A DNA stretch of 64,000 bases, from positions 197,160,001-197,224,000 of the forward strand of contig CM097883.1 of NCBI GenBank assembly GCA_044892505.1. Direction: 5' to 3'. The notes beneath the pieces were generated by a model. That model was not told the origin of the DNA, made no database searches, and saw nothing but the letters and a program-made list of their open reading frames with translations. Position numbers and translations under genes: made by a program. The DNA is from Schmidtea nova (Eukaryota). Positions 56,860 through 62,335 of the stretch are shown in pieces. Numbering within the stretch: position 1 is the stretch's first letter; every line of letters starts with the position of its first letter.

Positions 56860-59800
56860 TGTTGGGCCAAAACGCAATTTGTTTTAATAAAGCGATAACC
56901 CCATAGGTAGAGAACGCGCAAAATTCCATTTTTAACAGTAGCATCCATTAAAAATCCAACAATTAAGAAGAAAACACCAAAAGGTGAAGTGGAATCAAAA
57001 CACATCAACCGGTAGACTACGCGCTAACTGCGAATTTATAAATATTTTCACTGAAATCTCGAGAAAAATTAAAAGCAGAATGTTTGGAAGCTAGAATAGG
57101 CAAAAAACCCATGGAAAATGCCCATAAAGAACAGAATTTTGTCATAAACCTTCAAGTGCAGAAAAATTAACAAAATTTTAGAAGAAAATTGTGAATTTAT
57201 CACAAAATTTCACATTTAACAATAGAAAGAATTAATACGGATCGAATATAATAAATTAAATCAAATCGAACAAATTTCGATTCAAACATAAAAATTTTGA
57301 ATTAAAATAAATTATTTATAGTTTATAAAAAATTATTATACAAAAATATGGAATTAATTTTCGGAAAATCATTAGAATTAATTTAGAAAAAATTAAGAAA
57401 AAATTCTAGAACAATTTGTTTTATTGCACTACCGAAGATAGAGAAAATTTGATGGTATATATACCGCCATCAAAATGGCAGAATTCAGAATTTTGTGGAA
57501 AATTTTCTGGTATTGCAAAATTTAGAGAATTTAAAAGATTTTAGCAGAATTTTTGGGGAAATTTTTTTTTTTTGGTTAAAGAATTCGAGAAGACGTTATC
57601 AGAACTTGTAGTTTCGATTTCAATTTGAAAAAGAAAAATTAATCAGGAGAGCCGCAGTTAACGGACCCATCAAGAAATTTACCGGAAAAACCAAGAAAAT
57701 CAATTTTTGTTTCCGAAAAACCCCTCAGGAAGCAGCACTAAGCAAATTTGAGAATTTGAGAAGATTTTTGGAATCTCTCAAGAGGACAATTAGAATTTGA
57801 GCTTGGAATGTAAGGGTTATTTTATTTTTATTTTTTATTCTCTCTTTAAACTTGTTCGAGGGGTATGGGATCGTCGGTAATCATGCCTGTCGATCATCCC
57901 ATTCCTCGCGCTTTATTATGCATCTATTATTTTATTCTATTTTTATTTAATGTTAATATGTTGATATGGTATTATTTAAATATTAAACTCCTTTTATTTC
58001 GATTTATTTTTGAATTTTCTAAATGTATAATTCACACATTCCCATAATATTAAAAACTTTCATGAAAGAAAAATTATCTAAATAAAATTATGAAAACTAA
58101 ATAAATTTTTTTTTCTCCCATATCTTCTGACGATCCGCCCAGCCTTGGTTGTGCGGATCTGTTAGTAGCCTGGGTGGATCGTTGTCTGATTGGTAATCGG
58201 CCAGCCCATATTTCCACTTTAAGGTGAGGCTCATACATCTATAATCTCGTCATCCCAACTGGGGAATCGTGGTATGGCCAAGAGCAAGGATTTGTTATAC
58301 TAATGATTTTTATTATAATAGAGTATCATATTTTTATTATCTACATAAGCAATTTCGTAATATAACATAACAATTTCTAATTCATGTCTTGAAATCTAAA
58401 ATAGGAAATATTACTGATTAAAAAAATTGACTCGTACTCACCTTCACCTTCACACTCTCAACAACGATCGTCTTATGTGAAAACGCAAGAAAAATGGATG
58501 CTAATGACGAAAAGAAAATTGTTCGAAATAATGCTCAAAGCTAGAATAATGCTCACGAAATGAAACGAATTGTGAAACAAGTATCGATTTGATCTGAATT
58601 AAACTCATTATTGTCTAAATAAGTTTTCCTTGTGAATCTCGTTTTCGAGAGCCTGAAATTCCTAAGTGAAGCGTCTCGAAAAATTCGCGCGCGCTTTAAT
58701 TGGGAAATTCATGCTCAACAAAACCGAAATTCATTTTGTTCGATATCTAAAAATATTCTTGAAGAATTTATAACTTATGTTATTTTATTTTTTATTCAGT
58801 ATATAAAACTTTTTAGGTTGAATATCTGTTTGGATCTCGGAATTTACGGATAAAATTTACTATTATTTCAATTTGATCGAGAATAAAAATTTACTTTTAT
58901 TATATTGCAAAAATCTTAAAATGAAAAAATCGTAAACTAAAAATTTTTCTAATATTGTTATTATATAAAAAGGATCTTATCATTTGATAAAATTCCAGAG
59001 AATTTGCAAATCAAAAGTTATATTAAACCCCCTAAAAATTACAGATTGAAATTTTATTATTATATTAATAATTTTTATTATTTTATAAAAAATCTGAATT
59101 CGAGATTTTATAGAAAAATTTTTGATCTATTCTTAAAGTATAAAAATTTTAAATTCAAATCGACATTATAAAAATTATAAACTTTATCGTTAATTGTTTT
59201 TCATAGAAATTTTAAACTTAAAAATTTGTAAAAAGCATTATGAGAATTATTATTATTATTTCGATTTAAAAATTGTTATTATTATTATTTTGATCTAAAA
59301 ATCATTACTATTAGTTTAATTTAAAAATTTTTTATTATTTTAACTTTAAAATATTTTATATAATTTATTTAATTATAATATAACCACCCCACGATATCTT
59401 AAAAATAATGATACATCACTCATTGCAAAAATTTACACCCTTTTCACTCAATAGTATCATCCATACTAATACACAAGCAACATACATATAAAATACAATA
59501 TACACACATACACAGTATCATTTATTAACATTTAACGATCATTAGACACACAGGCAAACCATACCGAAAATTATACATAGTTAGGTTAATTAGCATCATC
59601 CATCCAGTCAAACCCGCAAAACAAACACATCCATTCACTGAATCACTCATTTCACCTAAGGTACCATCTCTTATCATCACAACAATAGGTTATTCGTCCC
59701 AAACAGTATACCCATGCACACCCCATTTATAAATCAATTGAGAGCCCCATATTGTTCAATAAAATTCCTGTAAAATTGAAAATTTTCTAACTATCTGGGA

Positions 59801-62335
59801 AATCACCCCTACACTCATCAATATTTTATCGTCTATTTGAATTAACACAGCGGCTAAGAGTTTGTCAAAGGGAAACTCAACGTGATTCGAATGATAAGTG
59901 TGTATATCCCAATGTAGTTTTCGACCCAAATCGGAAAAAGTTATTTAGACAGAAGAGGACTTAATACGAGGTATAAAATAATCTGCGATGTAATGGTACT
60001 TTATCATTAATACTATTATATTAATCTTTCATCGCCTTAATACTACTACATTAGTATGATCACGTCAAGGTATTATATTATCAAAGTTTTTATTATTTAA
60101 ATAAAAAGCTCCTATATATATAAATGTGCTTGTAGATAGGTGGACATTAATTAAGATAACTTCAAAATTTGAATAAAACGCATTGTGTCAAAGCTATCAA
60201 GAAATCATTTGAAAACTACCCGTTTTCACATGTAGTCTCAATTTAACCACAGTTCATAAAAATAAAATTTTAATTCCTAAACATATTACGCAAACATAGA
60301 AAATAAAAGTGAATATAAACTAAAAATTTATTAAAATGAAATAAAATTAATCAAAATTCATGAATGATATGGTCAAAAAATTCCAATTTACCAATACTGA
60401 TGATCTAATAACTTCCAACGTTGAAATCGAAATAAAATTCACAATAAAGAATAATAAGATCTGACATGGAATTAGAACCATTTTTGAGAATCATTTTCAT
60501 TCGAAAATCGTTTTCTTCCATAGGTAAAGACAACCGACAATCCAGAGTGGAAGAATTGTCCTAAGTAAATTCGATAATGTTATAAAATAAATGGAATAAT
60601 ACCAAATTACCTGTAAATCTTGTCCAAGAGGGAAAACTCGAATTTCGCTGTTGCTAAAAATAAGTGTCTAAAATCGATAAAACACTAATATAATAAATAA
60701 AATTTAATAGTATAAATTACCCAATGAGAATCGTTTAATTTAGAAATCCGTATATGTAGTTTTCTTCTTTTGAGGGGGAACAGCCTTATTTTCAGGGGTA
60801 TCCGGACTAGATTTGAATTTCCTAAAATAAAATTTAATTTAGAATCTGAAAATATAGGAATTAACTAAAATTAATAGATTATAATTAAATTAAACTTACT
60901 AAATATTTAAGCAGCTTATATTGATACCGTTGTTAAGGCCTCGGTGAAAATTTAAATATAAATTTATTGAAAATTTTAAAAATAAAATTCATCAAATTTC
61001 CATTAAATAAGCAAGTTAGACATTAGGTATAGGGGATTAAACATATTAGCTCGGGTTTTAACGAAAGGAAAAGTCCAAAAAATCGAAAATTTTCAATCAA
61101 TAGGCCTTTAAACACAAACAATTAAAATCAAACACTGACGGATAAAGATTTTTCTTTTGATTTCCCGAGTTGAGGCTCGATGGGCATACCCATGGAGGAT
61201 TCATGGTCCAATATGTGTTTTAGAGATTTTTTATGAATAATGCTATATGCTATAATGGTTGTGCAGCAGCTACGCTCGACAATTACTAAATGTTAACATA
61301 ATTTTAGAAAATGAACCCAATGCAACAGCTCGAGGAGATCCGTGCGTTATTACTGGAAAACGCAAAACATAACAAAAAGGTCGACGCACGGTTGGCCGAA
61401 CTGGAGGCCAAGGGCGCATCCAACTCAGATGCCCTCCAGATAATGACCGGACGTATGGAAAAATTCCGGGCCCGCTGTCGCGAGATGGAGGCGACATGGT
61501 CCGATGGGGAGACGGTGGATCGGCTCAAAAAACAAAATCAGATGCTGATGCAACAGGCCGCCGAGGATGCCATGCGATTGCGGGCGTGTCGGGTCTCCAT
61601 GCGGGAGCAGGAACTCGCCAATCAAAAACTGCAGGTGGACAGTGGCCTCATAGCGGCCATTCTACCCAAACCTCAAATCCCACCTCAAGAAATGTTCCCG
61701 GTGAGGGTGGAGGAGGAAATTGCAGCAGCCGCGGCTCCAACCAAACCGAAAAGATGGAGGCCCAGTAAAGGGACAAGGGCCAGAAACAAGCGCCGACAAG
61801 AAGCGCGAGTATTGGGACAATTGAGGGTCGAGGCCTCAAAAATCGGCGGCTTGTCTATCGACCTGACCCAGACACATTTTTGATTGATTTTGTAGTGATT
61901 TTTGCAGTAAATGTTGTTATTTTTATGATATTATTATAAGTTTGTAATTAGTTTTCTTTTGTATGATTGCATGGAGATAAAGATAAATATAAAAATATTT
62001 AAATACATTGATTAAGTAATAAACAAATCACAGTCGGCGAAAATATTCAAATAAAAATCTCGAATGAAGAATCCACAGTGATAGAGCAGATAAATTAAGA
62101 GGGACAAAAATGGGCAAGAAACCTTCCATCGGTAGCCCTTGGACCCAGGAGATATTCGGTCAATCATAGTTTCGTATTGACGACGCTCACTGATTGCGAA
62201 TACCCACCCACTTGTTACAGTACCAACGTTACATAGTGACGGGTACCAAGGTGGTAATTTCAATGTTTTATGTGTTGAGTTGTTGATGAGAGCCATAGAA
62301 ACGTCAAGGTCATATTGACGGTCAACAACCCACCA
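56860..62335 (+). mobile_element. Solo giant LTR (copy C), 5476 bp
   Basis: TGTTGGG at 56860, CCCACCA at 62335, TSD TATG (56856-56859, 62336-62339); family blocks in collinear order. Confidence 0.85.
61311..61883 (+). CDS. 190-aa coiled-coil protein with a basic C-terminal patch, inside the solo LTR; function unknown
   Basis: Open from ATG to TGA, markedly GC-richer than its surroundings; heptad-like N-terminal half; KPKRWRPSKGTRARNKRR. Confidence 0.7.
   Translation: MNPMQQLEEIRALLLENAKHNKKVDARLAELEAKGASNSDALQIMTGRMEKFRARCREMEATWSDGETVDRLKKQNQMLMQQAAEDAMRLRACRVSMREQELANQKLQVDSGLIAAILPKPQIPPQEMFPVRVEEEIAAAAAPTKPKRWRPSKGTRARNKRRQEARVLGQLRVEASKIGGLSIDLTQTHF

Follow-up and report, generated by a model that had tools for sequence, protein, structure and literature searches.

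Can a long terminal repeat (LTR) of a retrotransposon carry a protein-coding gene, and what becomes of that gene when only a solo LTR is left? In the usual view, an LTR does not code for protein, and a solo LTR is what is left of a disarmed element. The question is raised by a solo LTR of 5476 base pairs (bp) in a 64,000-nucleotide (nt) stretch of Schmidtea nova DNA (contig CM097883.1, positions 197,160,001 to 197,224,000; hereafter the window). This LTR holds an open reading frame (ORF) of 190 amino acids (aa). Herein, the ORF is shown to be a real gene under purifying selection, copied with the LTRs of a giant Ty3/gypsy family.

The earlier note on this DNA, made from the sequence alone, had described a solo LTR with family termini and TATG on both sides, 1.8 kilobases (kb) longer than the window's full-element LTRs and holding a GC-rich 190-aa ORF in sense orientation. 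All of these points were borne out. The LTR starts with TGTTGGG and ends with CCCACCA, which are the family ends. It has TG...CA ends and a target duplication, and neither a primer site nor internal element sequence adjoins it. The excess over the two LTRs of the window's full element (3640 and 3631 bp) is 1.84 kb, with the refinement that the extra sequence stands in place of 0.84 kb of unrelated sequence in the short LTR and is not a simple addition. Three blocks are common to gene-bearing and gene-less family LTRs (Table 1). The 5' block matches the window's full element at 82% and several other family members at 95-99%, and the terminal block is likely the R/U5 part (repeat and unique 5' region). 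Further related-LTR fragments in both orientations flank the solo LTR at window positions 51400-56208 and 62873-64000; the region is a nest of this family.

The GC content of the ORF is 0.55, against 0.28 in the remainder of the LTR, and none of 300 local shuffles yielded an ORF of such length. Selection was analyzed with 66 distinct open copies, which fall into five clusters (subfamilies) that are 37-76% identical between clusters. The ratio of nonsynonymous to synonymous substitution rates (dN/dS), which the earlier note had suggested estimating, was 0.07 and 0.10 in the two subfamily pairs whose synonymous sites are unsaturated. Saturation at synonymous sites is seen in the remaining eight pairs, with proportions of synonymous differences of 0.79-0.88 versus 0.24-0.41 for nonsynonymous differences. 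All alignment gaps among the gene copies are multiples of 3. Within the window's subfamily, variants found in at least four copies comprise 53 synonymous and 12 nonsynonymous changes (ratio 0.07), while singletons comprise 54 and 64 (ratio 0.36, a value biased by choosing open copies); these counts cover open copies only and include paired LTRs and array units. The identity also climbs sharply at the ATG, which was not used as evidence because the copies had been picked by protein score. No homology was found between the gene and the internal ORFs of family elements.

The distribution of the gene was determined by a protein search of the genome, also proposed in the earlier note. The best 150 of 5,382 candidate matches were scored, and these show 94-100% identity. 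The family LTR end is located 1013-1033 nt past the match start in all 30 top loci fetched. LTRs were also sampled independently of the protein by a 19-nt LTR-end pattern, which gave 8,946 exact matches, with 0 for the reversed control. From the first 100 listed LTR ends, 40 were picked by position within the first 10.4 Mb of contig C1, which is not a random sample. The gene or a homologue is present in the same slot, ~1045-450 nt before the LTR end, in 14 of these 40 LTRs, and five of the 14 copies are full-length and open. Scaled from this fraction, the gene is estimated to be present in ~2,000-4,500 LTRs genome-wide. Two diverged subfamilies were checked as well: the LTR end is present at 3 of 20 loci in one, where 17 are units of tandem arrays, and at 16 of 25 in the other. 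The remaining nine old copies of the latter could not be placed; every placeable dispersed copy sits in an LTR. When 30 loci were picked by a non-coding motif instead, 19 had an open gene, 6 a broken gene and 5 no gene (seven of the 30 came from one array).

Eleven paired elements selected for having the gene, seven of the window's subfamily and four of another, carry it in both LTRs; a single copy among the former seven holds a stop. Target duplications of 4 bp were read at both ends in nine of the eleven, and the LTR-LTR identity is 99.1-99.9% in the nine pairs compared. Among the position-picked LTRs, the 14 with the gene include six solo LTRs (with target duplications), one attached and seven unclassified, versus two solo, 14 attached and 10 unclassified among the 26 without it (Fisher p 0.002 for the classified copies, which are not independent). 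Because it is more often solo, the gene-bearing LTR type is suggested to be older on average than the gene-less type. The earlier note had argued that a gene inside the LTR is duplicated at each transposition and survives LTR-LTR recombination, so that even solo LTRs would spread it. The first two parts hold, as the eleven pairs and the six solo LTRs indicate. The last does not, because solo LTRs cannot move by themselves and thus preserve rather than spread the gene. The note had named as a refuting outcome that no other LTR carries the ORF; this is contradicted by the numerous other LTRs with the gene.

Three independent tandem arrays of LTR pieces containing the whole gene were observed as well (C1 ~610.31-610.47 Mb; C2 ~408.22-408.24 and 408.55-408.58 Mb; C2 ~9.015-9.026 Mb), with units of 1484, 1257 and 862 bp. 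Array units, with no stops listed, account for 72 of 150 and 38 of 150 matches listed in two gene searches. Since the arrays surfaced via gene searches, their frequency is not comparable with that of arrays of other LTR parts. One array unit covers the acceptor-like site, the ORF and the AATAAA (equivalent of window 61213-62064).

Table 1 Features of the solo LTR, its gene and the related element in the window.
Feature	Position	Strand	Remark
Solo LTR, Burro-type Ty3/gypsy family, 5476 bp	56860..62335	+	Termini and duplication; identical termini bound paired elements
Left target-site duplication, TATG	56856..56859	n/a	
Right target-site duplication, TATG	62336..62339	n/a	
5' block	56860..57506	+	Common to gene-bearing and gene-less family LTRs
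Middle AT-rich block	58082..59614	+	Common to gene-bearing and gene-less LTRs; 72% vs window's full element
Conserved non-coding motif 1	60926..60944	+	Upstream of gene; possible internal promoter element
Conserved non-coding motif 2	61012..61026	+	Upstream of gene
Splice-acceptor-like TTTTAG	61302..61307	+	Three bases ahead of ATG
Orphan gene, 190 aa	61311..61883	+	Predicted helices 3-117, Pro-rich linker, Arg/Lys-rich helix, acidic-hydrophobic tail
Arg/Lys-rich segment	61749..61808	+	Residues 147-166
C-terminal motif resembling a SUMO-interacting motif (SIM)	61851..61868	+	Residues 181-186
Candidate poly(A) signal, AATAAA	62018..62023	+	317 nt before LTR end
Terminal block	62094..62335	+	Common to gene-bearing and gene-less LTRs; 95% vs window's full element
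Internally deleted family element	33506..51243	-	Gene-less LTRs; TTAT duplication

The sequences around the gene suggest how it would be expressed. All 32 copies shown, which represent the five subfamilies, have a T-rich YAG (Y, pyrimidine) 0-6 nt ahead of the start, versus 12% of background ATGs. Similarly, an acceptor-like YAG precedes 7 of 10 internal cargo ORFs of a related non-autonomous element (the P value omits one ORF taken as a broken continuation), and the first Met of the polyprotein is without such a site. The message is likely matured at the acceptor by cis-splicing or by spliced-leader trans-splicing; the latter occurs in planarians, as an excerpt of PMC12582326 states. A leader-supplied AUG is doubtful because the acceptor-to-ATG distances are not all in frame. 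The AATAAA shows a peak in the -328 to -298 bin, with 19 of 40 family LTRs against 0-8 in other bins, and AAUAAA is given as the main planarian poly(A) signal in an excerpt of PMC5068929. Being upstream of the likely poly(A) site, the gene is placed in the unique 3' region (U3) or in R. It is probably in U3, where it would close a series of accessory ORFs led by acceptors.

Motif 2 is found in 13 of 14 gene-bearing LTRs and in 7 of 26 gene-less ones. Because 15 of 20 young elements with an open polyprotein are without it, motif 2 is not the main promoter. It was also rejected as a strict splice donor, GT following it in 8 of 12 aligned LTRs. The terminal block contains a predicted 22-bp hairpin at 62148-62205, which is 98-99% paired in 139 copies and is a candidate RNA target of the protein. 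Sequence scans found no Rfam family and no tRNA gene.

Structure prediction, another check named in the earlier note, was run with an input of 26 sequences. AlphaFold2 predicted helices at residues 3-62, 66-117 and 153-179 and a low-confidence Pro-rich linker, with a mean predicted local distance difference test score of 74 and a predicted template-modelling score of 0.24. The last helix is basic, with a net charge of +9 to +13 over 30 residues in all five subfamilies. The tail I-D-L/I-T/S is conserved, with I183 invariant and D184 nearly so, and is taken by us to be a SUMO-interacting pattern. The label of coiled coil reflects the predicted long helices and weak family matches; a crude heptad count over residues 3-117 revealed no clear register, and a dimer prediction for residues 1-122 gave no answer (score 0.04), which is evidence for neither side.

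No homologue was found in a set of 5.8 billion sequences (queried with the single protein, the alignment and the longer proteins), in 1.84 billion representatives (single protein only), or in metagenome contigs. Among PDB sequences, the best match was a designed coiled coil (E 0.006). With 26 members, Pfam returned weak coiled-coil families only and no match to a superantigen or a basic leucine zipper (bZIP); the PDB sequences likewise gave no superantigen match. The best ESM Atlas match (0.85) is unnamed, and the fold searches gave generic long-helix matches only (Z up to 6.8), none of them informative.

The host family was characterized by its polyprotein. An integrase-region query from the window's element gave at least 150 identical matches, many of them in open frames of ~5,000 aa; frames of 4991-5006 aa are open in many copies. 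Pfam was run on three pieces of the open polyprotein of one gene-bearing element and gave the order gag, CCHC, MATH, fusion glycoprotein, protease, reverse transcriptase (RT), RNase H, integrase, ankyrin and FN3. The fusion protein is of mononegavirus type (PF24664, E 4.7e-70) and lies in frame between gag and protease. This polyprotein sits between two gene-bearing LTRs that are 99.76% alike, in one of the four paired elements of the other subfamily, which was read through; the gene-bearing open element is ~31.8 kb end to end. An excerpt of PMC6431247 describes planarian Burro as having a single ~5,000-aa polyprotein with gag, CCHC, MATH, an env between gag and protease, protease-RT-RNase H-integrase and ankyrin, a total length of >30 kb, thousands of copies, and BIR and SUMO-like cargo. 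Because the polyprotein layout matches this description, the family is identified as a Burro-type giant Ty3/gypsy on every feature tested, matched to Burro1-4/GYPSM1 by description. The same layout points to a planarian as the probable host.

The seven paired elements of the window's subfamily are non-autonomous and ~27.7 kb long excluding nested inserts. Among 13 ORFs from two of these cargo elements, Pfam identified RING, SUMO-like with protease and ankyrin, TRAF, and BIR-RING proteins, the SUMO-like match being weak (E 0.018). Gag, RT and integrase were absent from these 13 ORFs, and the ORF lists of the other elements look alike. The cargo element is multi-copy, with about ten separate ORFs, most of them acceptor-led, including a RING-zinc finger-MATH TRAF, a BIR-RING inhibitor of apoptosis, a RING protein and two predicted membrane proteins.

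In the window itself, the internally deleted element has LTRs >99% alike and a 1312-aa frame that still encodes the integrase end, ankyrin, FN3 and a hydrophobic segment; open frames of the same length class (~1345-1350 aa) occur in many copies in the genome. A purine-rich tract is absent before the 3' LTRs viewed, for which window 37146-37225 on the minus strand is an example. What is found there instead is a small hairpin and, ~9 nt from the LTR, a motif rich in C, which roughly mirrors the primer-site side. The primer site is 10 nt from the 5' LTR and is presumably tRNA-Pro-like. Plus-strand priming and end processing may be unusual in this family. The window also contains a compact Ty3/gypsy element at 7630-11984 on the minus strand, whose gag (405 aa) and pol (1032 aa) are in separate frames, a more decayed compact Ty3/gypsy element at ~12600-16250, and, at 31231-32145, a frame of 304 aa that matches DUF4371 weakly and is likely what remains of a hAT-type transposase.

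The gene is optional. It is missing from 26 of the 40 position-picked LTRs, and 5 of the 150 integrase matches listed have a listed gene match at LTR distance by coordinates. The 3' parts of gene-less LTRs form 22 clusters among 47 LTRs. One of these clusters arose by a ~930-bp deletion between short matching sequences and then spread in paired LTRs. A gene-less junction in five loci was considered as a splice product and rejected; it is a microhomology deletion. Loss by deletion is therefore clear for one lineage, and the older gene-less types represent either loss or a pre-capture state. The LTRs are mosaics: most of the first 1.8 kb of the window's short LTR is near-identical to a gene-bearing LTR, and the sequence beyond it is near-identical to gene-less ones. 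The gene has been lost from much of the family's youngest part, and gene-bearing and gene-less lineages coexist within one genome.

Known systems offer partial parallels. Sag is a superantigen and membrane protein of a vertebrate betaretrovirus, mouse mammary tumor virus (MMTV). According to an excerpt of PMC12548423, its gene sag lies in the LTR (U3) and hence in both LTRs, and Mtv solo LTRs exist. The present ORF is likewise wholly within the LTR and copied into both LTRs. However, its protein is without similarity to Sag and looks soluble and nuclear from the predictions, and in this invertebrate Ty3/gypsy family the gene is both old and optional. HIV Rev has an Arg-rich RNA-binding helix, and a conserved Arg-rich helix is present here. 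CERV of C. elegans Cer1 is reported in an excerpt of PMC10309623 as a spliced Ty3/gypsy product required for genomic RNA export. The shared features are an element-specific orphan protein and a Ty3/gypsy element; a spliced message is predicted for the present gene. Unlike those of CERV and Rev, the present gene is inside the LTR and absent from many young copies, and no homology to them was detected. The plant LTR retrotransposons Grande, RIRE2, Retand and Ogre have conserved extra ORFs of unknown origin and function; in the available part of PMC7264820 these are internal, often antisense, and none is described inside an LTR, whereas the present gene is within the LTR. The gene is thus placed like sag yet unrelated to it, and the Rev-type resemblance is in outline only.

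The comparison with Burro/GYPSM1 is closer. The polyprotein layout, the length of >30 kb, a copy number in the thousands and the BIR and SUMO-like cargo are shared. The available part of PMC6431247 describes accessory ORFs and polyprotein domains but no LTR gene, which is present here together with a 27.7-kb cargo element that lacks gag and pol and has its RING, protease-ankyrin, TRAF and BIR-RING proteins in separate ORFs. No LTR-internal gene was described for Burro in the literature searched; the original Burro description and the Repbase entry could already show one.

As to function, a Rev/Tat/CERV-like role is ranked first, counter-defence second and DNA-binding activation third. The first is preferred because even an element rich in acceptors needs its unspliced RNA exported, as CERV does for Cer1; we hold it tentatively, as the best single candidate and somewhat short of probable. 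The complete proposal, held with similar reserve, is a conserved accessory gene in U3 whose spliced message would encode a nuclear, trans-acting regulator of element RNA. The acceptor before the ATG would be used in cis or by the spliced leader, and the poly(A) signal in the LTR would set the 3' end of the message. Oligomers would form through the helical part, and the Arg-rich helix would direct nuclear entry and bind element RNA, perhaps the terminal-block hairpin. The product could be borrowed by gene-less elements, and it is proposed that the gene has been lost repeatedly because of this. Several observations weigh against this proposal. The gene is present in 0 of 23 sampled young open-polyprotein elements (20 + 3) and so is dispensable in cis, unlike CERV; its absence from most young open copies is hard to square with an essential role in export if it is not provided in trans. 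The Arg-rich helix may be only a nuclear localization signal, and a leucine pattern resembling a nuclear export signal occurs in the representatives of three of the five subfamilies, the window's own not being among them. The terminal block is not folded more stably than its shuffled versions (z -1.26), and most positions of its hairpin do not vary, so that few changes affect both sides of a pair. The searches revealed no homologue and no fold match that would link the protein to Rev, Tat or CERV. Lastly, the gene could sit in R, depending on where transcription starts. That position has been weighed separately: under an LTR-internal start, each LTR, solo ones included, would be a self-contained promoter-intron-gene-poly(A) unit. 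It concerns position and expression and is compatible with any proposed function. Consistent with it are the two conserved motifs, which 13 of 14 gene-bearing LTRs have 285-385 nt upstream, the frequent GT after motif 2, the acceptor and AATAAA in place and the array unit that spans both and the ORF, but the GT is not invariant and the motifs are absent from many young LTRs. We consider it unlikely, though worth serious attention.

The protein could instead be a counter-defence or host-modulating factor, in which the SIM-like tail and the coiled coil disturb SUMO- or PIWI-dependent silencing or host signaling. An excerpt of PMC8532177 reports that Burro RNA increases upon SMEDWI-2 loss. The conservation of the tail and the SUMO-like (weak), RING, TRAF and BIR-RING cargo of the family point in the same direction, and optional, often-lost genes fit a conditional benefit. 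On the other hand, the SIM assignment is our assumption on five residues, with the pattern in 3 of 5 representatives, and selection is purifying overall by a whole-gene estimate; we regard this role as doubtful, slightly more so than a position in R. Foamy-virus Tas and HTLV HBZ are models for a third role, a DNA-binding transactivator of the LTR promoter with a coiled-coil dimer and a basic helix. The long predicted helices, the separate basic helix and the conserved upstream motifs, which could serve as binding sites, agree with it. However, the order of parts is the reverse of bZIP, with the coiled part first, then a low-confidence linker of 35 residues and then the basic region; no bZIP Pfam match was found, and many young elements are without both the gene and motif 2. 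This role is rather improbable. Least probable by far is a passenger ORF, whether it came by nested insertion, by capture of a host fragment or by chance as a GC-rich frame. The GC content sharply unlike that of the LTR and the many family LTRs without the gene would fit a passenger, as would direct repeats of 6-7 bp near the proposed borders, although such repeats are expected by chance among 110 x 110 positions. The earlier note had itself considered an independent insertion at 59660-62010 with its own termini and target duplication, but no inverted termini are present at these inner borders. The fixed position in five subfamilies, the saturated synonymous sites, the dN/dS of ~0.1 and the location of every placeable dispersed copy in an LTR (with the nine unplaceable old copies noted above) speak against a passenger. 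A chance frame and a nested insertion are refuted by the fixed position, the selection and the absence of inverted termini.

In a more far-reaching reading, the LTR would itself be a mobile expression unit for a shared regulator (Rev/Tat-like or anti-silencing) that acts in trans and on which gene-less young elements depend. Thousands of solo LTRs and the tandem arrays would be the suppliers, with messages matured at the acceptor before each ATG, possibly by spliced-leader trans-splicing. We think this improbable, to about the same degree as the transactivator. If it is true, solo-LTR formation amplifies a retroelement function rather than disarming it.

The clear precedent found for an LTR gene is a vertebrate retrovirus gene, MMTV sag. 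In the planarian family, the recombination that deletes an element leaves the gene behind, in the thousands of LTRs estimated above, where annotation pipelines would mask it as a repeat. The coexistence of gene-bearing and gene-less lineages makes helper-and-cheater evolution of retroelements testable. Planarian genomes are dominated by such giant elements, for which the protein is a candidate factor in regulation or counter-defence.

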